A program made the position numbers and the translations under genes. This document shows positions 1,751 to 51,577 of a stretch of DNA of 64,000 bases, in pieces; within the stretch, counting starts at the first letter, position 1; every line of letters begins with the position of its first letter. This stretch comes from an uncultured bacterium (GTDB lineage: Bacteria; Acidobacteriota; HRBIN11; JAKEFK01): NCBI GenBank assembly GCA_963777505.1, contig CAVZQN010000001.1:288001-352000 (forward strand), in the 5' to 3' direction. The notes beneath the pieces were generated by a model. That model ran no database searches. It had not been told where the DNA came from and was given only the letters and a program-made list of their open reading frames with translations.

Positions 1751-3740
1751 TTAATTGGTTGGCGCTCTGTCAGACTTTCCCTGAAGATAGTGGCCATACC
1801 AGGCGAGATATCTTTCGTAAAGATCCTTTACGTAATATGGTGAATCAATTCCGTGATTCTCACCCGGATAAACAATCAGCATTGTATCGACATTCAATCG
1901 CCGAAGAGCTTGATACATTTGTTCCGAATGGATCAAAGGAACATTCCAATCTTCCTGGCCGCACAAAAATAATGTAGGTGTCTTTACATTTTCAACTTGA
2001 AAAAACGGTGAAAGTTTTCGCCAGTGATCAAAATTGCGCCAGGGCAACTCAAGCTCTTTCTCCCAGGCGTGTTGCCATTCATCTGTTCCGTAACCAGCAA
2101 AATGATTCGCAATACCCGCACCTGAAGTAGCTGCTTTAAAACGATCAGTTTTTGTAATCACTGTATCGGTTTGCATCCCGCCATAACTCCATCCACCTAC
2201 TCCCATTTTTTCAGGATCGATGAAGCCTTTTGACACAATGTAATCGACACCGGACATCAAGTCTTCATAGTCCTTAATTCCCCAGGCAGACCAGATCACT
2301 CTTGCGAATTCCTCACCATAACCAGTAGATCCGCGTGGATTCAAACCAGCGACGACATATCCGTTCGCAGCAAACAATTGCCAATCATAATAAAAGCCTT
2401 CATTGTATTGATCGTTTGGTCCGCCATGAATTCTCAGTATGAATGGATATTTTTTTGAAGGATCAAAATCGGGCGGAAAAGTCAGAAAGCCTTCGATAGG
2501 AATGCCTTCATTATTCTTGAATTGAATCCGCTCTGTTTTTCCAAATTCTACAGATTGCAGCAGCTTCGCATTCGTCTGCGTCATCTGTTTGGATCCTTCA
2601 TTTTGATTCCAGATAAAAAGTTCCGATGGAAAGTCTGAACGCTCGGAAAGAAATGCGATAGAACCGCCTGGCCCGGCATCAAATTCTGTAACGACATTAA
2701 CTGAGAGTACATCTCGATTCACTAACCCGCCTTCAACAGGCACGCTGGCTAGACGATGAGTTCCGTGATCTTCCAACAGGAAATAAATAAGACGGCTGTC
2801 GCTGGCTGAACGCAATGTTGAATACATTTCGATCTAATTCACGGGTGAGAATTTTTGGCGTACCGCCTTCGGAGGAAATCACAGCAACTTCCAGAGTGTC
2901 GTACCAGATGATGTCCGGCTGGACCGATGTTGAATAGACAATCCATTTTCCATCCGGACTCCATGAAGGCGTTTCATCCGGCCCTTCATTTGTTGTTAAC
3001 TTTTTCAATTCTCCGCCATCGCTTGAAACGATAAATAAATCCGTATTCGTATTCGTGTCAGGATCTTTGGTCCGATTACTGACAAAGAGAATTGTTTTTC
3101 CATCAGGACTCCACCTTGGTGAAGAATCATCGAATGCTCCTGAGGTAATTTGCTTCAACTTACCTGTACTCAGATCAAGTGTGTACAGATGTGAACGCAG
3201 ATCATTTAAATATCCTGTGCCATCCCGTTTCGTCTGTCTGCGTGTAACGACAATCGGTTTTTCGAATCCTAATACTTCTGATTGATCTGCATCCGTCAAG
3301 ATCAATGCGAGCTTATTTCCATCCGGTGACCATTCGAATTCATCAATGCCCTGCTTGATGTCTGTGAGCTTGCGGGCCTCGCCACCACCAAGGCTTAATT
3401 CGAAAACCTGCGATTCTTCGTTCTCACGCGAGGACAAGAAGGTAATACTGTTTCTATTTGGATGCCATCTTGGTGTTGAGTCTCTTTTTGGATAACTTGT
3501 AAGTTGGATTGGCGCTCCTCCACCCGATGGAACCATCCATAGATCCTGATTCTTTCGATTTTTTTTGACATCGAATTGTGTTGCTTCGTATGCAACCCAT
3601 TTTCCATCAGGGGATACTTGTGGAGAAGACAACTGTTGAATCGAAAAATAGTCATCAACAGTCAGGCGGCGCCGTGATTCAGAATAAGCGGACTGTAAAC
3701 TCACGCAAACCAAAAGAGCTGAAAGCAAGATCTTGTTCAT
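1751..3740 (-). CDS. S9-family dipeptidyl/acylaminoacyl peptidase, split by one frameshift near 2820
   Basis: Signal peptide from M3740; PD40-like SPDGK propeller repeats (2733..3827 ORF); HGGP, GWSYGG nucleophile, Asp in EDWNVP and His in GENHG (1751..2827 ORF). Confidence 0.88.
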
Positions 3741-3815
3741 ATGTGCCAATAGCATGCCATGACACAAATCGGAATGGAAGATTCCAAAATAAATACAGGT
3801 TATGATCGTATCGTT

Positions 3816-5168
3816 ATGAAAATCCAACCAACTCTAATGATTTTGGTTTTAATTCTATTTTCTGTCACTGCTCAAAGCTTCGGTGAAAGTGCAATTGCGA
3901 TTACACATGTAACTCTTATTGATGGGACCGGCTCACAACCTAAAAAGGATGTCACTGTAGTCATATCAAATAAGCGCATCATTGCAATCGAACGTTCAGG
4001 CAGTTCACAAATACCGCAAAATGCAGAAATCATCGATGGCACAGGGAAGTTTATAATTCCGGGATTGTGGGATATGCATGCACATCTTACCAACTACACG
4101 GAACTGGCATGTCCTGCGCTTGTGGCTAATGGTGTAACAGGGATTCGCGATGCAGGCGGCGATCTTGAGTTGATCGATTTAATCAAAGAACGGATTGCAT
4201 CTGGAAAAATTGTTGGACCTCAAATTTATCGCGCAGGTCCATTTGTGGATGGTTCAAAGCCTGGTGTCCCTGATCGTCTTGTTGTTTGGAACTCTGATGA
4301 TGCCCGTGATGCTGTTCATTTTTTGAAAAAGCGGGGTGTGGATTTCATTAAGACTCACACTGGAACGCCATCGGAAGCTTATTTCGCGCTTATTGAAGAA
4401 TCACAAAAGCAAAATCTTAAAGTGATCGGCCACATTCCATCGGAAGTAGATCCGGCTAAAGCAGTGGAGGCAGGACAACATAGCATTGAACATGTTGTTA
4501 CACTTTTTGAAGGTCCATTTCAAAAGGTGGTAAAAAGCGGCAAGTCACAGGAGCAAGCAATGGCGGAATTTAGCGATGAATACTTTCGATCGCTTGCACG
4601 CCTTATGGTTTCTAAACGCACATGGTTCGACCCCACGTTGATTGCTTATTGGAATCGTTCTTTTCAATGGGACGTCAGAGCGCGAAAAGATCCACGCGAT
4701 CAATATATTACTGCTTCGGCAAAAGAATTCTGGAAAGTTTTTCCCGATCTTCCAGAGGAAAGAAAAGAACTCTTAGCAAAGGCATACAAACGTTTCAACG
4801 AAATAACGATGATCATGCATAGCGAAGGAGTTCGTTTCCTTGTGGGAACTGACCTTGGAGCTAAATATTCACTACCTGGCTTTAACGTGCATGATGAATT
4901 GGATCTGTTGGTAAAGGCTGGCCTCACGCCAGGTGAAACGCTGGTGGCAGCAACGCGTAATTGTGCCGAATCGCTGGGTATCCTGGATCGTACAGGAACA
5001 ATTGAAACCGGAAAATCGGCCGATCTCGTTTTACTCGATGCCGATCCGCTGGCCGATATCACTAATACCAAAAAAATTTCCGCTGTAATTCGAGATGGCA
5101 AAGTATTCAAGCGCGCGGATCTGGACGAATTGCTGAAACAAGTTGCCGCAAATGCACCAACACATTAA
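3816..5168 (+). CDS. Secreted amidohydrolase-family protein
   Basis: Signal peptide; IIPGLWDMHAH, SIEH, GTD and GKSADLVLL motifs. Confidence 0.88.
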   Translation: MKIQPTLMILVLILFSVTAQSFGESAIAITHVTLIDGTGSQPKKDVTVVISNKRIIAIERSGSSQIPQNAEIIDGTGKFIIPGLWDMHAHLTNYTELACPALVANGVTGIRDAGGDLELIDLIKERIASGKIVGPQIYRAGPFVDGSKPGVPDRLVVWNSDDARDAVHFLKKRGVDFIKTHTGTPSEAYFALIEESQKQNLKVIGHIPSEVDPAKAVEAGQHSIEHVVTLFEGPFQKVVKSGKSQEQAMAEFSDEYFRSLARLMVSKRTWFDPTLIAYWNRSFQWDVRARKDPRDQYITASAKEFWKVFPDLPEERKELLAKAYKRFNEITMIMHSEGVRFLVGTDLGAKYSLPGFNVHDELDLLVKAGLTPGETLVAATRNCAESLGILDRTGTIETGKSADLVLLDADPLADITNTKKISAVIRDGKVFKRADLDELLKQVAANAPTH

Positions 5169-5646: not shown

Positions 5647-8600
5647 TTACGGCAAAACTGTTGTAACCGCTGCTGCTGGCGTAGCTACAGTCAAATCCGC
5701 TGAATAGTCCGCTTGATTTGTAATGATCGTTGTCGGAAGAACAGTCGGTTTGATCTGTGCCTGGACCTTTAATGTTCCAGTAAAGCCAACATTCACCGTT
5801 CCGAGATTCCAGGTTACGGTGCGAGTTACCGCATTATAAGTTCCGCCATTGGTTGCTGAAATAAAATTCAATTCTGCAGGCAATACATCTGTAACTTTTG
5901 CATTGGATGATGCAAAAGGTCCTGCATTCGAATACGTAAGCGTGTACTCAATGGTCGTTCCGCGTGATGCAGTTGCTGGCGCAGTCATAGTGAACGTAAC
6001 AATCGGGTCCATCGGCGGCGCGCTTGCTGCTGCACCGAAAACCTGAAATTCTGCAGCCCGTACATCGTTATCGGCCGGTGGAAGCATTACGCCACCGTCA
6101 CCAACTCTGCAATCCGTTGAAAAAAATGGATCGTTGTCTTGTTCGCCCTGGAATGCTGTTTGTCCTGTGCACTGATTGTTTGCAACCCGGAATTGTACGT
6201 GAGTTGCTTGCGTATCTGGAACATCGAATTCGCGCAAAATCAAATCAGGTGCTGCTGGTCTCGGCACAGAGGCTGGAAATGCATTCGCAGGACTTGTATA
6301 GATGAGAGTAAATCCCGCTGGAATTGTGCCCACACATGTTGGATTGGAAATGTTTCCAACTTTGCATGTCAGTACTTGAAACTGGCGCAATGCTGTGAAT
6401 CTTCCGCCTTCATCCGGATCAAGCATGGCGCTGACTTGAACTCTTTTTATGGTTTGCAATCCACCTGCAAGTGCAATCGTAACTTGATCGCCAACCGCAT
6501 CATCAGGAACATCACCTGTGGTCGATGACCATACTGTGTCTTCAGTATCGTCAATCAGATTATTTAGCGATGTCACTCCGTCACCAGCGGCTACAGCTCC
6601 GTTATTCACGGAAGCCAAATTTTTCGCCATCTTTACTGTGAGTGTGTACGTATTTCCCGCGCCTCCGGACCATGCATTTCTTGGGAAACGAAGATGACCA
6701 TAACCAGGCGCTTGAATCAGGAAATCGTAAAAATAATTCGTGACCAACCAAACTGTTCCGGTCATTCCGGTAGCATCTGAAGTTGCAACAGGAGTTGTGC
6801 GTGCTTCATAATGTCCGACAAATACTTTTGCGTTGGGAATCGCAGTGACTCCATTGGAATCAACAATCTTAAATTTGAATCCGATTTCTGCTTCATTCGG
6901 AGATTCGAAAGATGCTTTTGGATCCACATCATCGGGGCTCGCTGTAGAAGCATTGATCCCCATACCGCGCCGGGCAAATACACGCCACAATTCGGTTTGG
7001 TTTGCACTTCCAAAGCGCATCAAATCCGCAGCAAGATAGGCATCGCGTGCTGAAAGAAAATCCACATCAGATGACATCAGCAAGAATGCATCAAACATGA
7101 TTTGAATCCATCTGCGATTTCCGGGACACTGATTTGCAGGCAATTTTCCGTTTGCACAATCACGCTGCAAGGCTTTGTTTGATTCGGGATAGGAGCCGTT
7201 GTATTTGGTGACTAGAGCCTTGCGAATGTCATAGTTGGTTGCACTCCAAATTTCACCGTCGGCATGCCGCTGCGCATACAGAGTGCATGCTCCAAGATCG
7301 TCCTGTTCGCAAACGAAATCGTAGCCAACGTTGCTGTAGTTCAATGGATTGTTTGTTGTCAGCGGGCTTGTGGGAGCTAATACTTGCGGAGGCCCACTGT
7401 GGAACCCGGCAACCGCTACGTTACGACTCATGTTGTAATTGCGAATTCCGCGTTCCTTATTTCCTGTCGCATACGGTCCAACTGCAAACGGATTTTCGTT
7501 GCTCGTTGGAAATTCGTTTGGACCTCCAGGAATGTAATCTGAATATTCATTCACTATTTCCACTCCGGCCAGATCGCCCCACGATTCACCCATGGAAGCG
7601 CCTTGTTGGCTGAGAATGCCAGAGTCTGGTCCTCCGATCATGCGGTTTGAAATTGCGTGAGTGTATTCATGACCAATAACGGACATATCGAAATCGCCAT
7701 CAACGCATGGTGCGTAGAATGCGCCGGCGATCGGCTGCCACAAATACATGTTTGTGATTCCAGGAATTCCATCTTGCAATGTAATTTGATTTGCATTGTC
7801 TCTTCCCAGAAATGATGGATAACCGCCAACGAGCGCGCCTGCTTGAACATTCCCTGTCTCAGGATCTTGCTCGCCACCAAGTGGAAATGGACCTGGAGCA
7901 GTTAATCCGAAATTGTTCGTTTGCATGTTGAAATTCCGTTCGGTAAATCCTAAGAAGTACGACCAATCGTGCATTCTGTTATGTTCCGAAAACAGATTTG
8001 CGGTTGCAGCATCGACATCGTTTCCATTGGGTGGAACCAACGCTGCAGGATTGCATTTCTGGGTATTCCATTTGTTTTCCCATGGAAATAAATAATCGCG
8101 AGTCGGTGAAACCGGCCGGTAATTTTCTGCAGGAGTTAAAGGACTGGCCCACGCTTGCGAAGAACTTGCATTGTTTCCGATGGTTGTGTTTGTCGCTGCA
8201 TTTGCAGTGACACTGTGATCCCAGGGCACACGGGATGCTAAATTTTCAAGTGCAACATCGCAGTCGGAAGTATCTTTGTTTAAGTCGACACCCGATGTAA
8301 CCCAACATCCACGTGCACGGTTGTCAGTGGCAGACAAATCGAGTGGCGGATTTGCAGGAACGAAATCCCATTTTGGTGGAAAGAAGAATCCTTGTGCTCG
8401 CAACAGGACTTGAGGTGAATACGCCGCCATAGTTGTAAGGAGCAGTTTGAGGAACCGTACCAATGAACGGACAAACCTCAACGCTGAAATTTTCGGCAAC
8501 GGCAGTTGGAGGCGAAAGGGTTTGATTCACGACCGCTTCAGGACTGGTTGCTGTATCAATTGCTTGAAGAAGTATTCCTGTAGTGCAATCACCACGATAT

Positions 8601-9586
8601 AGTTTCAAAACAATGTCATTTGTTACGATTGCTGCGGATGCAACTACGTTAATACTCGCGGTCCCAATCGGTACTGCAAAAGTGTGGCATACGCCGCACG
8701 TATTTGGATTAACGTTGTAACTTCCATTAAATACATTGACGGAAGGTGTTCCGCCTCCAGACTGTTGTTGTTGTCGATTGGTTCGCAGAAGGATTTGGCC
8801 GGATTGGGCATCAACAAAAAATGTATAAGCCATCGAGATTCCGCCTTGAGAGTTCAATACGTTTGTTTCATAGGCGGGGCGTACTCCATTGCTAACTGTT
8901 GGAAAAGCAACAAGACGCGATCTCTGTGGGTGTGAAAAACCGAGAACATCAAAAACTGTCCAGCTATTTTCCTGGCGTGTCGCAGATATATTTGCAAGCG
9001 ATACAACCTGGCCGATGCTAGTTGCAGCATTCAACCATGCAGTAACAGGATCCAGAACCGCTCCTCCAGGAGCTGCTTGATCACCGGTGGCGGAAGAAGA
9101 AACATAAGCAATTTTTCCACCGGTTATGCCAACTGTAATGAGTCCATCCATTCCGGCTGGCAAAGTTCCATACTTCTGCCGGAAAATGACGGCATGGCCA
9201 TCATATCCAGCCATGAGTGAGTCATTCAAAAGTTCAAGCGAATTCGAGCTTGTATCTGACAAGCGAAACAGAGCCTTGTTAACGTTGATCCAGTTGCGAG
9301 CAGCAGTTACAGGACTGCCACTTAAACCGGTCGCAAGATAGCCACCATGTTTAATGAGTGACTTTGGAGTTCCAAATTTGTTCCATTGCGCTTTTGCACC
9401 AAGACTACTGACAATTCCAATTTGCTGCGATGTCGGCGCAATTGATTCCGATCGTGAATCGAAATCAGGCAAAGCGTTGTGAACATCGATGACCTTAGCA
9501 GCGCTCCATACATTTGCGCAAAACATTAAGACAAAAAGCAGTGTGATGATCGAACGGTAGGTTCTAGTGCCTCTGTTACCTGACAT
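5647..9586 (-). CDS. Large secreted M36 (fungalysin-like) metallopeptidase with propeptide and C-terminal DUF11-like domain; frameshift near 8390
   Basis: RBS GGAGG before ATG 9586; signal peptide; FTP/PepSY-like propeptide (FFVDAQSGQIL); HEYTH and GESWGD zinc motifs; HADGEIW; C-terminal TYTLTYSNAG/VTDVLP-type Ig domain; two overlapping ORFs. Confidence 0.85.
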
Positions 9587-9813
9587 TGAATTTCCTCCAA
9601 TTTTCTCAGGAGGCTTCCGAAATGCCGTTTTGAACAACCTCGCGAGCATTTTCTTTGAAGCTCAGCCTTTCAATTCCAATGTACTTTGCGCAGGGATCTG
9701 AACCAATGAGGGAAACACCCTAAAGATGGAGGAAAAGGACCTCAATTTGATTTGAGATAGCAGATTTCAGATAGGAGATTGAAATTGGAGGATTGAAGAT
9801 TGAAAAATTTGGA

Positions 9814-12027: not shown

Positions 12028-13900
12028 TCAAGGTGTCTTCTTTCCACCACCAGAGTTTTTCCAAGCATGTCGTGTAGTACCTTGGACATTCGTACGCACC
12101 ACTTCCACTGTGTTCTCCGAGCCCCTGGTGGTTCTAATTACCTCCATAGCTTCTTCCGCAGACATTCCCGCGTCCTGAAATTCTTTAATAGCTTTCTGTT
12201 CTGCTACCGTGAGCTCGCCGGCGGTTGCATTAGGCTTCACATGTACAGATGTTCCACTGCCTTGTCTCCAGGAGGTATTGTGGGTTTTTACACCAGTCTT
12301 GTCTGTTCCTGATGCAATCCGTTTTTCACCCGAGCGGACAACAGTTCCAGTTTCAGCTTTCATTACTTCTTTTTCAGCCGTGCGAGTTGCGGCTCCCGTT
12401 TCAGTTTTCGTTACTTGTCGTTCAGCGGATCTAACAATCGCGCCGGTTTCGGCTTTAGTTATTGATGCTGTCTCCTTTGCCAAGAATTCTTCGCCGAATT
12501 GCAAGGCCTTTTTTCCCAGGAATTTTGATCCCGCGTATGCAAGAGACGCATAGTCAACGGGACCGTCAGTTGGGATCGCCTGTCCCGCACCGCGCGACCA
12601 TCGCTCCTTAAGCACGTTTCCATTCCTATCGTAATATGTTGTTTCAATGCCCCTTTGCACTTTATAGGCTTGAACTTCATTAGGGCCTTTCTTGCCGGAA
12701 GAGTCTACTTCCAAAATGGGACTCAAGTTCGTGATTGGATCCTTATCACCCTTCTGTTTGATATCCCATTCCGAAACCATTCCGTTTTCAAACGGAGTAA
12801 GCTCTTTGCCAAGATTGAGTTCCTTTAGCCGATCCTGCAGTCCAGACTGAGTCGCTGTGCGGGATTGAGTTGGGTGGAAATTCCGCGATTGGATATCTTT
12901 TAGGCCCAGATTATCGGCGTGTTCACGGGTCTTCGTTTGGTTGGTTTTTCCGGGATTAATAGTTTCGACTACGAACAATTCCCCACGTACCATATCCTGT
13001 GAGTACTGTCTTCGATCGAGCTTTTCTATCTTTTGTTGTCGGCTTTCAGGTTCGATAGTGTTTCCATTACGGTCGTAATATTTTGTCTCAAGACCCCTTT
13101 GCACTTTGTATGCTTCAGTGGGTCCTTTTGTTCCTGTCGAATCCAATCCAATAATGGGACTTACAGCCGTAATGCCTCCTTCTTTCATTTGTGGGTCCCA
13201 TTTTGAAACCAATCCTTTTTCAAAAGCAGTGAGATCTTTCCGTTGATTGAGTTCTTGGAGACGATCCTTCAAACCTGATTGAGTTGATGTGCGGTGTTGT
13301 TCCTGGTGATATTTCCTCGAAGCCACATCGCCCCTACTCCGATCTTCAACACGTTCAATGGTTTTGGTTTTGTCCGTGTTTCCTGGAGTAATCTTTTCAG
13401 CTACGAACAATTCACCCCGAACCATATCCTGTGGATATTGATTTTTGTGTAGTTTCTCCACTTGTTTCTGGCGAACGCCATCCGCACCGTTTTCGGCGAT
13501 TGCTTCTGCCGTAGCTTTGGCAGCAGCGGGCAACTTTACTGCAACAACTTCCGCAGCATTTTTCATGCTTTCATAAACGGATCCTGAGTCGCGATTCGCG
13601 ACTTGTTTTTGCAGATTTTCCTTAACAATCTGAGCTTGTATGTTATTTTGGCTCATGTGTTCAGTCGCGTTTTGTTTTGAACCTTGAGCCGCTCTTGCAG
13701 TTGCCTTAAAGTCTTCTGGCTCTTTTTTTTGTTGTGCTGGCGTGCCTGATTTAGCTTCCTTTGCTTGTGTTTTTACGCCACTTGCATCTGACGATGATGT
13801 CGACTTCGCTACGTCTTTCGATTCATCTTTCTGAATTTCTGGTGGCGGCGCCTGCGGAACTGTGGGATCCGGGTTCAGCCTTTGTGATTTGTGGTGGCAT
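12028..13900 (-). CDS. Orphan ~620-aa hydrophilic protein with a duplicated ~145-aa domain; frameshift near its 5' end (~13880)
   Basis: GGAGG-aagt-ATG at 13900 gives MPPQITK, which joins the long 12028..13911 frame after a 1-nt shift; no Sec signal; internal repeats. Confidence 0.72.
12610..13470 (-). repeat. Tandem duplication of a ~145-aa domain inside the orphan gene
   Basis: QY(P/S)QDMVRGELFV...TQSGL(K/Q)DRL.ELN...AYKVQRG(L/I)ET.YYDRNGN occurs twice. Confidence 0.9.
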
Positions 13901-13942
13901 ACTTCCTCCAAAATATTTGCATTGCTACTTTCAAAAACCGCT

Positions 13943-13979
13943 TACAAGTCGGCAAGACATTTTTGAAAGAAATATTTCA
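13943..13979 (-). promoter_or_regulatory. Putative ECF-sigma promoter A
   Basis: Minus strand TGAAAT-atttctttcaaaaat(15)-GTCTTG-ccgacttgta, about 45 nt upstream of ATG 13900. Confidence 0.7.
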
Positions 13980-13992
13980 TTCATTGTTGCGT

Positions 13993-14568
13993 TCATTGCT
14001 TTTGTCTTTCAATTTCTTCCATTTTCCGCTCAATTTTGAGCTGTTTATTTCTTATCGTTTCGTCGTCAAGAGTCTTTTGTGCCTTTTGCTGGTCCATGAC
14101 TTTCTCGAGTTCTTGCTGCTTTGAAGTGCCTTGCATATTCAATTCAAGATTCTTTTGAGCCTTTTGTTTTGCATCATCAATCGTGTATTTCCTGATGTGA
14201 TCGTCTTTGTGGTCAGGGTTAAGTGTTTTTAGCAATTGTTCTCTGCTTCCTGTGGAAAGGCGGTAATGAAATGCTTCTGCAGTTTTGGTACTGTCGGTTT
14301 GCAACATCTCATACATGTATTTTTTATTCTCAGGAGAGAGACCCTGAAACTGTTTTTGCAGTGAATCGACTCGAGCCCGTGCTGCTTTCCAATCTCCCTT
14401 TTGAACGGGTTGATTCAAAGTTTTGTGCAGATTGTTCACTTCCATATTTTGCTCATTCGTAATCTTCACTTCTCCTGGCGTAAGCTCTTTGCCATCATCC
14501 ATTCTTTGCTGATTCCAATAAGGGTCGGTTGTCGGTAAATTTGGGGAAGGATGTACTTTCGGTGCCAT
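13993..14568 (-). CDS. Orphan 191-aa helical, charged protein
   Basis: GGAGG RBS before ATG 14568 (MAPKVHPSP); C-terminal coiled-coil-like Q/K/E-rich helix; no signal peptide. Confidence 0.72.
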   Translation of the reverse strand: MAPKVHPSPNLPTTDPYWNQQRMDDGKELTPGEVKITNEQNMEVNNLHKTLNQPVQKGDWKAARARVDSLQKQFQGLSPENKKYMYEMLQTDSTKTAEAFHYRLSTGSREQLLKTLNPDHKDDHIRKYTIDDAKQKAQKNLELNMQGTSKQQELEKVMDQQKAQKTLDDETIRNKQLKIERKMEEIERQKQ

Positions 14569-14616
14569 ACTTCTAAACCTCCAAAAAATTTTCTTTTTGA
14601 GCGCTGTATCGCCCCA

Positions 14617-14653
14617 TACAAGTCGACAAGACATTTTTGGCAGAAGTATTTCA
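14617..14653 (-). promoter_or_regulatory. Putative ECF-sigma promoter B
   Basis: Minus strand TGAAAT-acttctgccaaaaat(15)-GTCTTG-tcgacttgta; near-copy of promoter A. Confidence 0.7.
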
Positions 14654-14678
14654 GGTAGGAGTTACTTTTTTTGAAGAT

Positions 14679-17600
14679 TTAGAGAGGCAACCACTGGCCG
14701 GATTCAATGAAACTGGCCCAAAAGAAGGGATGAGCGGTGCGGGAGTTTTTCATCATTTTCAACTTCACAGTGCGTAAAGCTTCAGCGCGTCCCAAACCTT
14801 GTTTAAGGTTCTTGTAGTAATTGGTCATAATTTCGCGAGTTGTGTAATCACTGACAGACCACAAGCTCATCACAAGCGATTCAGTCCCAGAAAGAAAAAA
14901 CGCACGCCGTAATCCGTATACACCTTCACCATTTTGAACTTGACCAAGACCTGTATCACAGGCGGATAATGTGACGAGTTTTGTTCCCCAAAGATTTAAT
15001 CCTGAAGCTTCCAATGCTGTAAGAATTCCGTCATCACTTCCACTTTGACGCGTGTTTGCTCCCGCAAAAGCAAGACCTGAGCGCAATAATGGATTTTGAA
15101 TCACAGCATTTGAACTGTTAAGCGCTGGTACATCCGTTAAGAAGAATCCATGAGTTGCAATATGCAAGATTTGCGGAGCAACAACCTGCTTTAATTTGGT
15201 TTCGGTTGCGTTCTTTCCCGTAAAAACATTCAGCTTCAGTGAAAAATGTTTTGATCGCTTGCGCTTCTTCACCCGTACCAGCTAATGGAGCAAAGTATAC
15301 ATTCGAAAGATCAGAAGCTGTGGTTACGCTCCTGCGATTTTTGTTCATTGCGATCTGTGCTGAATCCGAAATTTTTGGGTTCATGAGAGCGCGTGGGCCA
15401 AACATGGGATTTGCTAGCACAACAGGCTTACTTTTTGTTTGTCGTTCAAACTGAAGCCGCAAAAGATCTCGGCCGCTTGTCAAATACGAACATAAAAAGC
15501 TTTCGATTAGATAATGATCCTTTTCATCAACAAGTACTTCAAATGGAAAAAGATTCAGCTTGCCATCAGGTGATATCAGGAGGTGCTCATGCTTTTCAAG
15601 ATAGGGAAGAATTGGCTGAATTATTTTTTCATGAACGATCCTCCCGAATTGTTTCACGTCTTTGCGTGAAGGATCACCCAAACTTTGTCGCAATTTATCA
15701 ATCGATAAATCCACTTCATTGGCTTTACCTAAATCCTTTGAATGTATCTGTCCCTGATTAGGAATGACATAAGCAACATAACGCAAATCGTCTCCATCTT
15801 TGGAGTGATAAAGCGCAAACTCGATTAACACGGATCCGTTTGGAATTGCTTTGCGAATAGAGTCGAGTGTTATCGGCTGTTTCTGTGAAGAAAATTCTGC
15901 GTTGCGTCTGCTGATCTGATCTTGAAGCTTTTCAATTTTTTCTTCCAACTCGCGGCTTTCAGCTGTTGTTGAAAGTTCCGACGCATACAGTATCCGTTGA
16001 GCTAACTCAGAAGCCGATGCATTTATCTCATCCAACAGATTTTGATCATTCGGATCAGAATGGCTCCGCAATGATGAAAATGTATCAGCCATAGAATCAA
16101 GAACTCGGCCTTTGAACCGCATTATTACTGTTGCAGCAAGATCAGCGGCCTTCGAATCTTCGGGTGCGCTGTTCATATGGAGTGTAATATTTCTGCTCAT
16201 GTTTGTAGCAGTGGCGATAAGAGAACTTAGCTTTTGGCGTTCGGAACCGGCCGCGATAGCAAGTGCCAGATGATGTTCGACTACTTCATTCGCGCGGGAT
16301 TGATACTCAATTGCTTGCGCAATGTCATTCCTTCTGATGTAAACATCAGCGAGACCATTGAGCGGCTCAAGTAAAGTTGGCGATTCAGCACCCTCAGATT
16401 TTTCGGTGACCATAATCGAGCGACGGAACAATGGTTCTGCGGCATCGAATTCACTTTTTAAAACAGCAATTTGTCCGAGTACATTCAGCGCTTCAGAAAC
16501 GTGCGAATGATATGGGCCATGCATCTTTTCGTAAATCGAAAGAGCACGCCGGCTTACTTGCTCCGCAGAAGAATAATCCTTGAGCCCAATATAGGATGTA
16601 GCAAGTCTGGTAAGTACATCACCAAGTTGGGATGTATCATTTTTCCAGATTGTCTCCACAATTGATAGCGATCGCTTTAAGTATAATTCAGCGGCTGCAA
16701 AATCTCCCTTGGAATTGTTAATTTCACCGAGACTTACCAGAGCGTGCGCAATTCGCATCGGATTCGGTTTCGATGCCTTTTCACGTTTTTCCAGGATCTC
16801 TTTGTACATTTCTTCGCTATGCTGATAATCTCCCCTGGAAAGATATATGTTTGCAAGATTCGATTGTGCAACAAGAATTCCATTTTCATCATTCAATTTT
16901 TTAGCGATCTCCAAAGCGCGTTGATAATATGTTTCCGCTTCTTCGTATTCTCCCCGCCAGTAATGCATTCTTGCAATGTAATAAAGAACTTTCGAAGCCG
17001 GAATGCTATCTTTTCCTTTGGCATTTTCCACAGACACCAATTCGCGATGATAAAACTGCAGCGCAGTATTGAAGTCGCCAATGCTATCATGCAAATAACC
17101 GATACTGTGAAGCGCTTTTGCAAATTGCGGATCATCATTGGCAATTGAATTTTCCAGGATAGAAAGAGCGCGATTCAGCATTTCCTTGGACTCTGCGAAT
17201 TTTTGAGAATCAAGAAGATAGTTGCCGTAATCCATAAATGCATAGCCGGTAAGAAAGTGATTGCGATCAAGAGTCTTTTCTCGAATCATTACGGCCCGAG
17301 ATGCAAATGATTCTGTTTTAGACTGATTTTCAGTTTGACTATAGAAGCGCGCAAGATCACTGCACGATTCAGCAACGGCGGGGGATTCAGCACCAAATAA
17401 TTTTTCTCTGATTTCCAGTGCTTCAAGATAGAGCGGTTCGGCTTGTTCGTATTCTTCTTTACTGGTGTGAATATTTGCAAGTGTGTTCAGGGCCCGTGCA
17501 TAATCTGAATTTTCCTTGCCCCAAGTTTCTTCGAAAACACGCCTGCTTTCCTCAGCAATCGGAAGGGCATCATCATAATTTTCTTCCTCAGCCATCCGTG

Positions 17601-18024
17601 AAGATTGATAGAGATTCTGACGTGCTTTGAATATTAAACGATCATCGGAAGCAGCCGTACGGATTTTTTGTAGATAAATTGCATATTGCCCCTGCGCATT
17701 TTTTAAAGTAGGTTGTATCTCAATCCGATATTGGCCGGATTGATCAGCAAAAAAAGCCAACTGCTCTCGACCTTGATTTCTATTCTCTTGATCAAAAACC
17801 AAAATTTGTTTTCCATCGACGCCGTTTAATTTGATTACCACATCAACATTCATTTGTTCCACAACAACACATGCAAAATCACCTTCAGCAAGATTGATTT
17901 CAAACGATTGAGTTGTATTGCCGGAAATTTTGTTAGAAACGGTCTTTTCTGGTTCAAGTGGCGAGCTTTGAGCATTGAGCGATGATGAGAACAACACCAG
18001 AATCAATAAGAGGTATGCAAACAT
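14679..18024 (-). CDS. Exported TPR-CHAT (caspase-like) protease, ~1114 aa; frameshift near 15231
   Basis: Signal peptide MFAYLLLILVLFSSSLNA; PPC-like beta domain; many kinesin-light-chain-type TPRs; CHAT motifs LLISPDG.LNLFPFE, ILHIATHG (His), LSACDTG (Cys), MSLWSV, HPFFWASF. Confidence 0.88.
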
Positions 18025-18037
18025 CGACGGTCCAGAA

Positions 18038-18967
18038 TTATTGAATTAAGACATGAAAAGGATAACCGCTGATGATTTCCTTATTCCCTCGTTCAGTGAT
18101 GCCAAGAACTTCCAAGACATAATCCTCCGACTTCAAAATCTTTGCAGGGAATTTCACTTCAACGGTGTGATTAATGCTTTGCTCTGCTTTGCTCTGCAAT
18201 AAAATTTCAGCCGTAGCCGAATTTTTCAAAACAGTTTTGTACATTGGAAAATCATCGCTTTCGAGTTTCAATGTGACTACAAGGAACTCAGTCGCTGCCG
18301 GAATTTTAATCTCCGGGACCGTGGAGATCTCTCTTTGCTGAGGCGAAAGCGTAAATGCAAATAGCTTCACTGGCGCGGAACCCTGATCTGCCATTTGCTT
18401 CTCCAGTGCTTCAAGTTTTTGTTTGGTGATAGCAAGTTCTGTTTCTTTTTGTCGATCCAGAGAATTACGTTGAGTAAGATCTCGCTGCAATTGTTCTTCG
18501 CGCTTTTTCAAGGCAGCGTGCTCTTCTTTCATCTGCGCAATTTGATCTTGCAATTGAAGGTTGCTTAGCAGCAGAAATCCAGCAAGGACGAGCATTCCAA
18601 TAGCCGCTGCGATCGCGATCCACTGGTATCTCCGTGAAGGTGCATATCGCTCCGAGCGGACCCACTCTCTCAGCTGAGCAGAACTGTCGGCATTGTCAGC
18701 ACGTCTGAGGATTGTCCGCGCAACCGCAACCTTTTCAAGTCGTGTGGCAGAAGTGAGATAGTGGGATTCAAACTGAGCCCGCCTATTTTCCGGAAGCTCA
18801 CCTCTGATGTAATCATCTATAAGTTCGCTTTCAACTGCTTCCAGAAATTCGGCAAACTCATCATCGGTCACACTTAATTGATCAAGCCGACTGGCTTCAG
18901 TTTCCGGCAAATCGCCGAGAAGATAATCTACGATCAATTGTTCGTTCAATGAAGAGTCAGGCAACAC
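18038..18967 (-). CDS. Putative transmembrane anti-sigma factor
   Basis: Directly downstream of the ECF sigma; N-terminal LIVDYLLGDL / LIDDYIRGEL anti-sigma-like helices, single TM (WIAIAAAIGMLVLAGFLLL), coiled coil, C-terminal beta domain. Confidence 0.75.
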   Translation of the reverse strand: MLPDSSLNEQLIVDYLLGDLPETEASRLDQLSVTDDEFAEFLEAVESELIDDYIRGELPENRRAQFESHYLTSATRLEKVAVARTILRRADNADSSAQLREWVRSERYAPSRRYQWIAIAAAIGMLVLAGFLLLSNLQLQDQIAQMKEEHAALKKREEQLQRDLTQRNSLDRQKETELAITKQKLEALEKQMADQGSAPVKLFAFTLSPQQREISTVPEIKIPAATEFLVVTLKLESDDFPMYKTVLKNSATAEILLQSKAEQSINHTVEVKFPAKILKSEDYVLEVLGITERGNKEIISGYPFHVLIQ

Positions 18968-18980
18968 TCTACCTCAATAA

Positions 18981-19009
18981 TACAAGACAAAATTTTGAGA
19001 TTTGTTTCA
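18981..19009 (-). promoter_or_regulatory. Putative ECF-sigma promoter C driving the anti-sigma and CHAT genes
   Basis: Minus strand TGAAAC-aaatctcaaaatttt(15)-GTCTTGTA, overlapping the sigma stop codon. Confidence 0.65.
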
Positions 19010-19606
19010 CTTATCATTGTTTAAACATTTCCGGATGCATGATTCGAGCTTAATTCGAATGCGACAAGCTCGAATGGTGAGGGCGTTCATCGAAACACCT
19101 AATTTAGCCGCAATTAATTTGCGATTTTCGATCCGCACACGGCGTTCGCCTTGATAGTACCCAAGGATTACAATCCGCTCTTCCGGATCCAGGGTTTGCA
19201 AACATTTATCCAGGCAATTTGAGCGCTGCTGCTCCCATTCTCCTTCTTCCTGAAATTGCGGAGAACTAGCTAGATCTTGATGAAGAGGTTCGTTATGCTC
19301 GCGTTGTCGCAGAGATTCTAAAAAAACATAACGGGCAGTATTGAAACAGAATTGGGAAGGGGTGCTTCCGGTAATTTCTCCTTCTTCTTCCAATCTTCGC
19401 GCTACGCGATTCAAAGTCTCATCGGCTAATTCTTGAGGAAAAGAACAATTCTTTCGATCGAAATATTGAACCAGACGACGACGTATAACAACATAACGCT
19501 GACCACCAGATTCAAGGCTCTCATCAAGCCAACCTATTAAGCGCTGGAATGCACTTTGGGTCAGCACAAATCTTGTTTTTCTGTCCGGCTTTGGGAGATT
19601 CGCCAT
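19007..19606 (-). CDS. ECF-type sigma-70 family sigma factor
   Basis: Region 2-like PQELADETLNRVARR; region 4-like CLQTLDPEERIVILGYY...IAAKLGVSMNALTIRACRIR; about 200 aa. Confidence 0.82.
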   Translation of the reverse strand: MANLPKPDRKTRFVLTQSAFQRLIGWLDESLESGGQRYVVIRRRLVQYFDRKNCSFPQELADETLNRVARRLEEEGEITGSTPSQFCFNTARYVFLESLRQREHNEPLHQDLASSPQFQEEGEWEQQRSNCLDKCLQTLDPEERIVILGYYQGERRVRIENRKLIAAKLGVSMNALTIRACRIRIKLESCIRKCLNNDK

Positions 19607-19718
19607 GTTTGTTATCAAGACGATCGTGTTACCGATTTTCTAATATTTTGATTGTATTGCCAATGCTTGGCGGATGAAACCAGCGGGTTTATTTAGGTCT
19701 CAACACGTGTGATAGAGT

Positions 19719-22450
19719 ATGGACACAATGCCGTTAGCTGCAGGCCAAAAGCTTGGTCCGTACGAAATCAGTGCTCCTCTCGGAGCCGGTGGAATGGGTG
19801 AGGTGTATCGAGCGAAAGATACACGTCTGGGTCGTGAAGTCGCGATCAAAATTCTAACCGACGAATTCTCTTTGAAGCAAAACCGGATGGAGCGATTTGA
19901 ACAGGAAGCCCGGGCAGCTTCAGCCTTGAACCATCCGAACATCATCACAGTCCATGATATCGGTGTTCATAATGGCGGATCCTATATTGCAATGGAACTG
20001 ATTGATGGCAAAAGCTTGCGCGAAATGCTGCAAGCCGGCGCATTGCCGATCAAACGAGCTGTAAGCATCGCAGCTCAGATTGCCGATGGACTTGCCAAAG
20101 CGCATGAAGCAGGAATTGTTCATCGCGATTTGAAACCTGAAAATATCATGATTTCCAAAGATGGTTTTGCCAAAATTCTCGATTTTGGTTTGGCGAAATC
20201 CATTGCTCCGGCTGTAGCGGACGGCTCTCTGCTTTCAACTATGGCTAAAACCGGAGAAGGTACGATTCTGGGCACAGTCGGTTATATGTCCCCCGAACAG
20301 GCGTGCGGCAAAATTGTTGATTTCCGATCTGACCAATTTTCATTTGGATCCATTTTGTATGAAATGCTTTCAGGAAAACGTGCATTTGCCCGCGATACAA
20401 ACGTCCAAAGTATGTCGGCAATTATTCAGGATGAACCCGAGCCTCTTCAAACCCTGAATCCGCAAACTCCGGCGCCGCTCCGGTGGATCATCGATCGGTG
20501 TTTATCGAAGGATCCTGCAGAACGTTACGCTTCGACGCGCGATCTAGCGCGAGAACTTCAAAACATCAGGGATCATTTTTCGGATTTAACAAGCTCAACC
20601 GATGTGGTTTCACAACAGACACTTGCTCTACATCGTTCTCACGTTGCGCGATCCTGGCTGAAGTTTCTGCCATGGGCATTGTTGATTGCTGTCATTCTTT
20701 TGTTTGCCGGGTGGATTGCACGCCAGAGAAACAGTTCCGGTTCCAGCAGCAACTCGAAGGCTTGAAATATCAATACCAGGCGGTTACCAGCTCGCTCCGA
20801 ATGCGCCGCTCGCTATGGCTCCAAACGGAAGTGCAATTGTATTTGGATTGCTGGATCGTCAAATGCAAACAAAATTATGGCTGCGATATCTGGATAAATT
20901 TGATCTTCAAGCTCTTGCAGGAACTGATGGAGCAAGCTTTCCTTTTTGGTCACCTGATTCCAAATCGATTGCGTATTTTGTAGAAGGCAATTCCACATTA
21001 CGGCGGCTCGATCTTACAACCGGGCTTGCTCAAATCGTTTGTAAAACCCAAGGCTCGGCGCGCGGTGGTACCTGGGGACCTGATGGAACGATCCTTTTTA
21101 CTCCCGGAACGAACAATCCTTTACAAAGAGTTCCGGCAAAAGGTGGCATCCCTGAAGACTTTACGAAATTGGATCCGAAGATTGTCGATGGTTCGCACCG
21201 CTTTCCTGTTTTTCTTCCTGATGGACAACACTTTCTGTTTACGCTCTGGAGCAACCATCTTGAAACTGCATCAAAGATAGGAGGAATCTATATTGGTTCC
21301 CTGAAAAATAGTGAAATTCGCAAACTGAGTTCAGACTCTTCGCAAGCCATTTTAGCTGGAAACAACCGTCTTTTGATTTACCGAAACGAGGCTTTACAAG
21401 CAATTTCGATCGATCCTGAAAAATTGGAAGTCACAGGCGTTCTGGAAGAAATCACTCAACATCCGTTATTTCTTCCTGCTTCAGGCGCTCTGGGAGCTTC
21501 CGCATCAATCTGCTGGTGACATCGCGTATGCGCTTTCATCCGGTGAAGGAACTGCCCAACTTGCATGGGTTGAAGCAAACAGTGGTAATCAAAAAATCAT
21601 TCGTGATGATCGTCTTGGTATCCAGAATCTTGTCATTGCTCCTGATGGAAATCGATTCGCAGGGCAGTTTGTTGGCGCCGCTGGTGCTGAGATTTGGGTC
21701 GCAGATTCACAAAGACCAGTGATGACACGACTTACGCGAGGTGGATTAGACGCAACCGGACCTGTGTGGTCTCCTGACAGTCGTATGGTTGCATTTTCCA
21801 GCCAGGCTTCAGGTGCAGTAAGTGTATATCTTCAACCTGCTGATGGAAGCAACCAACCCGAACTATTTTATTCACAACCAGATCGTGACCTTCGTGTTTG
21901 TTCCTGGTCCGCCGATGGCCGTTCGTTGTTCCTGGAATCAAATGCCAAAGGAAAATCGGACAGCGCGGAAATTTGGATGATCGATGTAGCAACAAAAAAG
22001 GCGTCTTCAGTTTTATCCGATCCGACGGCAACTCTTCGCAGTCCGGTTCTTTCACCAGATGGTCACTGGCTCGCTTATTCTTCGAATGAATCAGGCCGTT
22101 ACCAACTTTATGTGCGTCCTTATCCAGCACTCGATCGCAAGTGGCAGATTTCGCAGAATGGCCTATTAACGCAATCAAACTTTTTTGCTCTGGTTGCAAC
22201 TACGTATCATCCCCACTGGCGTAACGATGGTCGCGAACTCCTTTATATTTCTCTGAATGGAACGGTCGATGCTGTTAGCATTGAAACTGAAGGCGGAAAT
22301 TTATCAGCTACAGAACTGAAAACACTCTTCAAACCCTCTTTTCCGTTGATCGCTATTGCTGCTTCGCCGGATCACACAAAATTTCTCGCAGCAATTGTGC
22401 CGGGCGATGTCACTTCCGAACCGATTCATGTTGTGCTTGGACCAAGATAA
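19719..22450 (+). CDS. Membrane Ser/Thr kinase with C-terminal TolB-like (PD40) beta-propeller; frameshifts near 20740 and 21508
   Basis: [33 protein letters not shown]; TM; WSPD/FLPDG/LSPDG propeller repeats continue across three frames. Confidence 0.88.
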
Positions 22451-22575
22451 AATATTCACATGTACGACATCGGCGAAGTCGATGTCGAATCGATAGGCGA
22501 GAATGTACCCGCAAACGTCTTCTGTTGCTGCCACGGAAGGTGGATGAAGCTCGTCGTTCGTGCTGAAACTGGGCT

Positions 22576-22629
22576 CTTCTCGTGTGATAACAGTATTGGC
22601 CACAATGCCTCTAGCTGCAGGCCAAAAGC
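22576..22629 (+). repeat. Third copy of the kinase 5' end (upstream sequence plus first codons)
   Basis: cttctcgtgtgataacagtattggccacaatgcctctagctgcaggccaaaagc matches 11598-11649 with two extra bases. Confidence 0.88.
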
Positions 22630-22660
22630 AAATTATGCATCAAGTGTTTAGGGAGAAACC

Positions 22661-23449
22661 TTGAACAAGATAACAATTTTCATTCTGTTTTTCCTGGCAG
22701 TCTGCACTGCATCCGCACAGATTGCGGATCGGCTGACAGACAAGGACATCAGAGCGCTCATTGAAACGATTGAACAAGATCGTGATCGCTTCGAGGAGTT
22801 ACTGGAAGATAAGATGAAGAATGCCTGGTATCGCAGCCCAAAAGGTGAAATGAAAATAGCTCTTGTTCTGGATGACTTGAGAAAAAATGTGAAGGCCATG
22901 AAGGAAAGTTTTACGAAAGATTACTCAGCGAGTAACGAAGCGGCGAACACATTCCGGCACGCTACAATCATCGATAGTTTCATCAAAGAACATCCGGACA
23001 CTAAAGCGGCAACTGAGTGGGAACATTTTTCCGTTAATCTTCGAACATTAGCCTATGCTTACGGAACGGATTTTCCGTTGCCTGCCGATGCTACGGTCCG
23101 AAGAATTAATGATCTTGAAACAGCGATGGCAGCAGACGCACTGATAAGGACGGCGAAGCAGTTTAAGAAAGAAGTTGAACGCAACAACACCGTTCCAGAA
23201 GAAATGAAGGAAGCATACAAACGCGATACTGAAGAATTAATCAAGCAAGCCATAACTGTGAGAGCGCGTACATGGGATTCCAAGCCTGCAAACATGGAAG
23301 CAAAAGCAATCATGGATCTTGCAATGCAAATTGGGCAATCACTTCAACGCGATCAGATTTCTTCATCAATTACTTCCGCATGGAATTCGATGCAGGCATC
23401 CTTGCAGAAACTTTCATCTGCTTACGGAATGACTGTTCGTGGGTCGTAG
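22661..23449 (+). CDS. Secreted alpha-helical hypothetical protein
   Basis: RBS GGGAG; signal peptide ending ASA-Q; two similar helical halves ending LAYAYG / LSSAYG. Confidence 0.7.
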   Translation: MNKITIFILFFLAVCTASAQIADRLTDKDIRALIETIEQDRDRFEELLEDKMKNAWYRSPKGEMKIALVLDDLRKNVKAMKESFTKDYSASNEAANTFRHATIIDSFIKEHPDTKAATEWEHFSVNLRTLAYAYGTDFPLPADATVRRINDLETAMAADALIRTAKQFKKEVERNNTVPEEMKEAYKRDTEELIKQAITVRARTWDSKPANMEAKAIMDLAMQIGQSLQRDQISSSITSAWNSMQASLQKLSSAYGMTVRGS

Positions 23450-51556: not shown

Positions 51557-51577
51557 AGTTATCCTCTTACCCTATTC

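Follow-up and report, generated by a model that had tools for sequence, protein, structure and literature searches.

How might a caspase-like protease acting outside the cytoplasm come to control a sigma factor inside it? This question is raised by a run of six co-oriented open reading frames (ORFs) on the minus strand (positions 12028-19618) of the window, by which we mean the 64,000-nucleotide stretch of contig CAVZQN010000001.1, from an uncultured member of the Acidobacteriota, that was analyzed here. An earlier reading of this DNA, made from the letters alone (the sequence-only reading), had assigned to the run a sigma factor of the extracytoplasmic function (ECF) type, a single-pass anti-sigma-like protein, an exported protease with tetratricopeptide repeats (TPRs) and a CHAT domain, and two downstream genes; the order and shared orientation of these genes are as it described, all of them lying on the minus strand. 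The first three genes are spaced like an operon, with a gap of 39 nucleotides between the sigma and anti-sigma genes and one of 13 nucleotides between the anti-sigma and TPR-CHAT genes. On balance, our analysis favors the view that the region is a conserved three-gene signaling cassette of Acidobacteriota, a split counterpart of the DdvA system of Myxococcus xanthus, in which the exported protease helps to inactivate the anti-sigma factor, probably by cleaving it.

A divergent sigma factor, a single-pass anti-sigma-like protein, and a TPR-CHAT protease

The sigma gene (19007-19618, minus strand) encodes 203 amino acids when counted from a TTG codon at 19618; the ATG at 19606 is the probable start. 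Its similarity to ECF sigma factors is significant by E value yet lies beneath every curated cutoff (TIGR02989, E = 2.4e-10 and 40.6 bits against a cutoff of 124.6; TIGR02937, E = 2.1e-7 and 30.7 bits against 42.9; Pfam Sigma70_r4_2, 17.6 bits against 25.7). When a profile of the family, built with 11 relatives, was compared with solved structures, the top match was the ECF sigma factor SigE, which aligned over positions 53-191, from sigma2 to sigma4 (E = 0.0018). The anti-sigma gene follows directly downstream, as expected for ECF sigma factors with a cognate anti-sigma factor. The family is large: a library of 1.84 billion representatives yields 4,454 matches at E ≤ 1e-10, of which 2,089 reach E ≤ 1e-30. 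Four cysteines (CxxxC ... CxxxC) flank sigma4 in this family, each kept in 158 to 174 of 177 sequences (column 135 in 161, column 139 in 174, column 194 in 171, and column 198 in 158); such a conserved quartet could form a metal or redox site inside the sigma factor itself.

The next gene (18038-18967, minus strand) encodes a protein of 309 amino acids whose assignment as a single-pass anti-sigma-like protein is borne out. It matches the zf-HC2 family (PF13490) above the curated cutoff (residues 48-69; E = 6.4e-7, 29.8 bits against 22.2), and its AlphaFold2 (AF2) model, made from an input of 49 sequences with a mean predicted local distance difference test (pLDDT) score of 88, consists of a helical N-terminal domain (residues 5-93, high confidence), a long helix (113-193), and a beta-sandwich (202-308). 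The one hydrophobic membrane segment (approximately residues 116-136, nucleotides ~18560-18622) forms the start of the long helix, and because basic residues precede it, the N-terminal domain is predicted to lie in the cytoplasm. A fold search with the model returned only generic beta-sandwiches, such as phage connector proteins and azurins.

The predicted periplasmic beta-sandwich opens with an L-x-P-x-x-R-G loop between strands 202-207 and 219-222 of the AF2 model, with the codon of its arginine, Arg212, at 18332-18334 (minus strand). Among 156 aligned anti-sigma proteins, this column holds arginine in 132 (with 19 gaps and 5 other residues), L207 is kept in 132, and P209 is kept in 107. Clan-CD proteases such as separase, the metacaspases, and clostripain cut after arginine, which makes the P-x-x-R-G loop a candidate cleavage site; that the CHAT domain cuts there is a speculation prompted by the conserved residues. 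The outer domain also tends to travel with the protease: a CHAT gene lies nearby in 60 of the 75 loci whose anti-sigma protein keeps the beta-sandwich and in 7 of the 21 loci without it, counts that serve as description and no more, since kinship among the genomes makes them non-independent. The C-terminal beta-sandwich of the anti-sigma protein and the N-terminal one of the CHAT protein were also considered as homologues, and this was rejected (hhalign probability, 3.5%).

The third gene is present in this assembly as two overlapping ORFs in different frames (15118-18024 and 14679-15272, both minus strand). The 5' ORF, of 968 amino acids, opens with a hydrophobic N terminus (residues 1-18), continues with a beta-sandwich (approximately 22-125) and a TPR array (approximately 145-700, with TPR_12 matches in seven stretches), and runs into the CHAT domain, of which it covers the first half (profile positions 3-137 of 289); its final ~36 residues are an out-of-frame tail. 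The remainder of the domain is encoded by the 3' ORF of 197 amino acids, which is homologous from approximately 15230 (PF12770, E = 2.3e-56, profile positions 122-288 of 289) and which alone holds the catalytic histidine (codon 15150-15152, in HIATHG) and cysteine (codon ~14958-14960, in LSACDT). The sequence-only reading had described a single PPC-TPR-CHAT protein with both motifs intact. Both motifs are indeed there, but they do not share one open frame with the TPR part and its predicted export signal, from which a +1 shift separates them. The name PPC was also rejected for the N-terminal domain, which matches no Pfam family even at E ≤ 5; instead, AF2 gives a confident beta-sandwich for this part of the orthologue in a related genome (G003).

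The predicted export signal fared better. The window protein has a hydrophobic, signal-peptide-like N terminus, and a crude hydropathy rule finds such a segment in 103 of the module's 119 CHAT proteins that are not fused; several of the 16 that fail the rule look like products of wrongly picked start codons. The His-Cys dyad is kept throughout the module, with histidine in 122 and cysteine in 123 of 126 CHAT proteins and alignment gaps in the remainder. AF2 modeled the G003 orthologue confidently in its beta-sandwich and TPR array and poorly in its catalytic half (pLDDT below 50 at residues 763-803 and 836-944), and a Foldseek search with this model, which bore on structural likeness to DdvA, separase, or Craspase, returned TPR proteins only.

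The three genes are conserved together across Acidobacteriota

Conservation of the trio was assessed by running the sigma family profile on 401 sampled Acidobacteriota genomes and scanning approximately 8 kb on each side of every match with hidden Markov models built for the sigma factor, the anti-sigma protein, and the CHAT domain. The sigma family occurs at 106 loci in 51 of these genomes. An anti-sigma gene adjoins the sigma gene at 102 loci and is lacking at four; the count comprises 100 loci recognized automatically, one in which the two genes overlap by one base (L154), and one in which the CHAT gene stands between them (L072; order sigma, CHAT, anti-sigma). A CHAT gene lies within 8 kb of the sigma gene at 73 of the 106 loci: upstream of the sigma/anti-sigma pair in 38, downstream of it in 20, fused to the anti-sigma gene in 6, and on the opposite strand in 9. 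By comparison, simple arithmetic from the ~10 CHAT genes in the 5.2 Mb of the present genome gives a chance of ~3-4% that a random 16.6-kb stretch contains one.

A second sample consisted of the 80 loci closest to the window sigma factor, drawn from named genome contigs. By title, these are metagenome-assembled genomes of Acidobacteriota type, mostly Pyrinomonadaceae and Blastocatellia with a few under other labels, and the two samples draw on overlapping genome collections and so are not independent. Where at least 5 kb of downstream sequence was available, 55 of 59 loci have the order of the window (sigma, anti-sigma, CHAT). In a quick tree of 178 sigma sequences (L158 and L159 were dropped as duplicates of L152 and L151, as were sigma ORFs outside 150-420 amino acids), the window sigma factor falls in a well-supported clade of 87 members, 64 of which have this same order, 18 of which lie at a contig edge, and 5 of which have no CHAT gene. 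Finally, when 4,271 ORFs from 186 loci were clustered, the trio was the sole set of families present in most loci. The neighborhood search that the sequence-only reading had called for thus finds co-occurrence far beyond chance, and together these results strongly support a real three-gene module, conserved across Acidobacteriota.

The largest neighboring families outside the trio, leaving antisense ORFs aside, were a C11 peptidase (20 of the 186 loci) and a CHASE3 histidine kinase (16 loci). The former belongs to the clostripain family (PF03415, E = 1.3e-23; for example, at L112:2884-4482 and in L079, L088, L090, and L094) and often lies directly upstream of a CHAT, sigma, anti-sigma array, so that two clan-CD cysteine proteases adjoin one another. 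The present genome also carries a paralogous sigma/anti-sigma pair (L155; G000:C10:14593-16149, minus strand), 36% and 23% identical to the window pair, around which a CHAT gene is absent for 8 kb; in the genomes G003 and G021, relatives of this paralogue do have one, directly upstream (L147 and L146).

Fused forms link the module to DdvA

At 6 of the 106 loci, a single ORF of 1170-1222 amino acids matches the anti-sigma profile at its N terminus and the CHAT profile at its C terminus, with a membrane-like segment at residues 102-128. When the 160 N-terminal residues of one fused protein served as a query, 30 further clusters of ~1,150-1,180 amino acids came up, all with PF12770; those with names are called only "CHAT domain-containing protein" and come from Acidobacteria or Pyrinomonadaceae. 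Shortly past the membrane segment, the fused forms have a YAP-x4-RG motif similar to the loop of the separate anti-sigma proteins. Parts that are fused in some genomes and separate in others are classically taken to work together, and the topology of the fused proteins points to a TPR-CHAT part that lies outside the membrane and is tied to the input of the pathway.

The fused proteins share the domain order of DdvA from M. xanthus. DdvA is the transmembrane anti-sigma factor of the DdvA-DdvS system and carries a periplasmic TPR-CHAT region with a His-Cys dyad; its structure has been solved by cryo-electron microscopy, and removal of the TPR-CHAT region leads to RseP-dependent degradation (PMC11506125). 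The authors propose, as a step they do not demonstrate, that CHAT autoproteolysis in trans comes first. The sequence-only reading had known of no characterized example of this exported architecture. DdvA-DdvS provides that precedent, together with the same site-1 idea (PMC11506125), and DdvA-like proteins are reported there in Myxococcota and one Comamonas only.

In outline, the window cassette resembles DdvA-DdvS in the way it would work. The two share an ECF-type sigma factor, a single-pass anti-sigma protein in which a small domain on the cytoplasmic side serves, or in the window would serve, to bind the sigma factor, and a TPR-CHAT region that carries the dyad and lies, in the window cassette by prediction, outside the membrane; for both, a CHAT site-1 step followed by RseP is proposed; and relatives of the window locus include fused proteins of the same domain order. 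The cassette stands apart from DdvA-DdvS in its lack of fusion, zinc ligands, and sequence relation. Its TPR-CHAT protein is a separate polypeptide, predicted to be exported, with its own N-terminal beta-sandwich, and its anti-sigma protein ends in a coiled helix and beta-sandwich, has no detectable sequence relation to DdvA, and belongs to a family without conserved zinc ligands, unlike DdvA, which has a CHCC zinc site. The window locus also comes from Acidobacteriota. A further difference concerns the genes controlled: the DdvA-DdvS regulon is of the antiviral defense island type, whereas a PADLOC scan of the six proteins of the window locus, the only ones scanned, recognized nothing except a generic TPR model and therefore no defense genes among those six.

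Two other systems share some of these parts. In the type III-E CRISPR system known as Craspase, the TPR-CHAT protease Csx29 cleaves Csx30 and so frees the ECF-like CASP-sigma (PMC10028731). As in the window, a TPR-CHAT protease is encoded beside an ECF-like sigma factor and its inhibitor, and cleavage of the inhibitor lifts inhibition. Craspase is cytoplasmic and RNA guided through Cas7-11; the genes of the window locus include no Cas component, its protease has a predicted export signal, and the sigma inhibitor is membrane bound. The ECF54 group also has a conserved CHAT-domain protein adjoining the sigma gene, in a context that includes carboxypeptidase and subtilase proteins, and PMC8999054 describes it as lacking an anti-sigma factor, unlike the window sigma family, which almost always has one. 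CHAT goes unmentioned in PMC8103513. We found no paper on a split module of sigma factor, anti-sigma factor, and exported CHAT protein, or on an acidobacterial one; a prior listing among the group descriptions of the ECF classification is possible.

A proposed mechanism for release of the sigma factor

The sigmaE pathway of RseA, DegS, and RseP supplies the general scheme: a site-1 protease in the periplasm attacks an anti-sigma factor of the single-pass kind, and an M50 site-2 protease follows. The window cassette would follow the same two-step logic. The predicted cytoplasmic N-terminal domain of the anti-sigma protein would hold the sigma factor; the TPR part of the exported protease may sense a periplasmic signal; the CHAT domain would act as the site-1 protease and cut the periplasmic part of the anti-sigma protein, possibly at the conserved P-x-x-R-G loop; and a site-2 protease of the RseP type would complete the cleavage and release the sigma factor. 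An M50 site-2 protease (E = 7e-62, in a frame of 446 amino acids) is among the products of this genome's genes, which makes the last step feasible. The first step would differ from the sigmaE pathway, in which site-1 cleavage is the task of a PDZ serine protease encoded apart from the sigma gene, whereas the candidate here is a clan-CD cysteine protease within the operon. Prediction of a complex between CHAT residues 22-720 and anti-sigma residues 137-309 gave a score of 0.00, which is evidence neither way. The strongest form of this proposal, in which secreted TPR-CHAT proteins act in trans as dedicated site-1 proteases at the near-invariant P-x-x-R-G loop and the split and fused forms are interchangeable solutions of one mechanism, we put forward tentatively, as something rather less probable than the proposal in outline.

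Several results weigh against the proposed cassette. Cleavage by a CHAT domain is still only a proposal even in DdvA, and the protease gene of the window is frameshifted. At 33 of the 106 loci, four of which are flanked on one side by under 5 kb of sequence, no CHAT gene lies within 8 kb of the sigma/anti-sigma genes, which indicates that the pair can exist without a linked protease; these loci include the second pair of this genome and that of a relative in the same genus (L152, genome G001). Among 49 anti-sigma sequences, no histidine or cysteine stands in an invariant or near-invariant column of the N-terminal domain, so that the HxxxCxxC zinc ligands, which DdvA has, are missing from the conserved positions, and comparison of the anti-sigma profile with solved structures gave just six weak and unrelated matches at E ≤ 1, with no similarity to DdvA or any solved anti-sigma factor. 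Nor did promoter searches supply a signature of the sigma factor: a consensus scan for ECF-type promoters was not above shuffled sequence, and a k-mer search of 80 upstream regions brought up no ECF-type motif but only a sigma-70-like one, TTGATGTCG...TTATG, present at 10-13 loci and absent from the window.

A frameshift interrupts the protease gene in this assembly

The intact orthologue in G003, of 1004 amino acids, aligns with the window in frame -2 as far as 15190 and picks up again at 15230 in frame -3, and since it aligns across two successive frames, a single +1 shift must lie within the interval 15190-15230 (minus strand), into which a run of five T's (15222-15226) falls. Programmed frameshifting was considered and rejected, as the orthologues have one continuous frame. 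The cassette in this assembly is therefore either misassembled or recently inactivated.

Real inactivation, with a dead protease in a lineage that is losing the module, is an explanation for this genome that we regard as plausible but the less probable of the two. It agrees with the single +1 frameshift itself and with the closest relatives: in the four-member clade nearest to the window sigma factor, G003 has the intact trio at L012, 8910-13457, the window has the frameshifted one, G001 has sigma and anti-sigma genes, and G002 has a sigma gene alone, and tblastn of the closest-clade relatives found no remnants of the missing genes. Against this stands the condition of the gene beyond the shift. 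The 197-amino-acid ORF is 70% identical to the G003 protein over 183 amino acids, retains the dyad, and shows no further defects, and so undamaged a 3' part points to a very recent event or to an error.

The state of the remaining genome bears on the same choice. A crude genome-wide screen found ~185 collinear pairs of split ORFs, a count that takes in mobile-element genes and possibly false pairs. Four lie inside the 64-kb window: a prolyl-oligopeptidase (1751-3827), a Ser/Thr kinase (19719-21519), the CHAT gene, and a pair at ~50638-51571; Pfam confirms that domains are split in the prolyl-oligopeptidase and kinase pairs. So many broken genes suggest indel errors in the assembly, although homopolymer runs of at least 5 are not enriched at the junctions (39.0% of 177 split-pair junctions, against 38.9% of controls). 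For the frameshift in the CHAT gene, we accordingly consider an assembly artefact roughly twice as probable as a true pseudogene. Public sequencing runs held only small shares of the genome (0.12, 0.08, and 0.05), and four of them gave no contig over 15171-16300, where the frameshift lies. Among the ~10 CHAT genes of the genome, 8 of 10 are uninterrupted; a second broken one (G000:C8:9613-12032, minus strand) is split among several frames when set beside its intact paralogue (C4:512175-515066).

Alternative roles for the TPR-CHAT protease

A different role for the protease would be as an output of the sigma factor and not its activator: the sigma/anti-sigma pair would sense something else and switch on an extracellular protease encoded in its own operon. 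Conserved neighbors of ECF sigma genes can be either regulators or targets, as PMC7826278 warns; the 33 loci with no nearby CHAT gene suit this alternative, and gaps of 39 and 13 nucleotides mean that induction of the operon would raise the protease too, whatever its role. We nevertheless consider it unlikely, since anti-sigma::TPR-CHAT fusions (6 loci and 30 clusters) are hard to square with a freely acting output enzyme and since the anti-sigma beta-sandwich accompanies the separate CHAT gene (60 of 75 loci against 7 of 21). Still less probable, in our judgment, is that the TPR-CHAT protein governs the anti-sigma factor without cutting it, as a periplasmic co-receptor or shield that blocks or admits other proteases while its dyad serves another substrate or autoprocessing: binding would explain the link between beta-sandwich and CHAT gene as well as cleavage does, and the bulky TPR-CHAT region of DdvA sterically shields it from RseP and has a misaligned active site at rest (PMC11506125), but the near-complete conservation of the dyad argues for catalysis, and the almost invariant arginine in an exposed loop of the anti-sigma protein likewise counts against a role in binding alone.

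The downstream genes are lineage-specific additions

The proposed cassette had been credited with output genes of its own, namely, the two ORFs downstream of the CHAT gene. This part of the sequence-only reading does not hold. The first, orf213 (13993-14634, minus strand; probable start at 14568), is rich in Lys, Gln, and Glu and has no visible signal peptide; the second, orf627 (12028-13911, minus strand), contains an internal tandem duplication (residues 147-286 and 291-434, 57.5% identity). Neither matches any Pfam, NCBIfam, or PADLOC model, and neither has a homologue in the other 185 loci, which places both outside the conserved module. Relatives of orf213 occur in 2 of the 401 phylum genomes, namely, this one, with three copies, and, weakly, a genome of the same genus. 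For orf627, the count among 40 relatives was zero; its family is small and patchy, with 13 homologue clusters from metagenomes, all unnamed and none with a Pfam domain, and in a protein atlas comparison its best score was 0.76, under the useful range. The two genes are also set apart from the neighboring CHAT gene in composition by a strong AT skew between 12000 and 14500 (-0.27 to -0.38 on the plus strand, with an A-rich coding strand), which is confined to them. They are lineage-specific additions and not conserved outputs.

Elsewhere in the genome (G000:C4:1736891-1738458, minus strand), there is a membrane protein of 213 amino acids whose likeness to the anti-sigma protein is confined to the latter's outer half (34% identity, residues 130-309). 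One of the two paralogues of orf213 (45% identity) follows it directly, and no sigma or CHAT gene is present there. This arrangement hints at a local link at the level of the genus and provides no evidence of a conserved output.

Other genes near the locus also appear broken. Divergent from the sigma gene (19719-23449, plus strand) lies a Ser/Thr protein kinase gene followed by ORFs with PD40 repeats in other frames (20686-21519 and 21719-22450), which appears fragmented; kinase-domain homologues stand near the sigma gene in G002 (L151, 1447-5982) and G003 (L012, 3281-5650), which may be mere paralogy. On the minus strand at 1751-3827, an ORF encoding a PD40/DPPIV beta-propeller (2733-3827) overlaps, in a different frame, one encoding a Peptidase_S9 catalytic domain (1751-2827), and the two jointly match a single intact paralogue of 541 amino acids in this genome, which makes them another gene split by a frameshift. 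The ORF at 5647-8499 (within 5647-9649, minus strand), which encodes an M36 metallopeptidase of the fungalysin type that carries a DUF11 repeat, overlaps by 175 nucleotides an upstream ORF of 441 amino acids that has no assigned family, and this, too, may be a split gene.

Significance of a split DdvA-type cassette

The trio is best regarded as a split and widespread version of the DdvA-type design, for which a precedent exists. For the present genome it matters less, since its protease gene is broken in the assembly and its supposed outputs are unrelated additions. For the design as a whole, the known range is widened: Acidobacteriota commonly have these parts, in most cases as two proteins and at times fused. 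Encoded separately, the protease and anti-sigma protein would form a natural enzyme/substrate pair, candidate cleavage loop included, for testing a caspase-like start to regulated intramembrane proteolysis. If the proposed mechanism is true, the split form would be the first system in which CHAT-triggered intramembrane proteolysis could be tested with enzyme and substrate apart, and Acidobacteriota would hold a large family of such ECF cassettes, on the order of 2,000 sigma clusters at 50% identity (E ≤ 1e-30).

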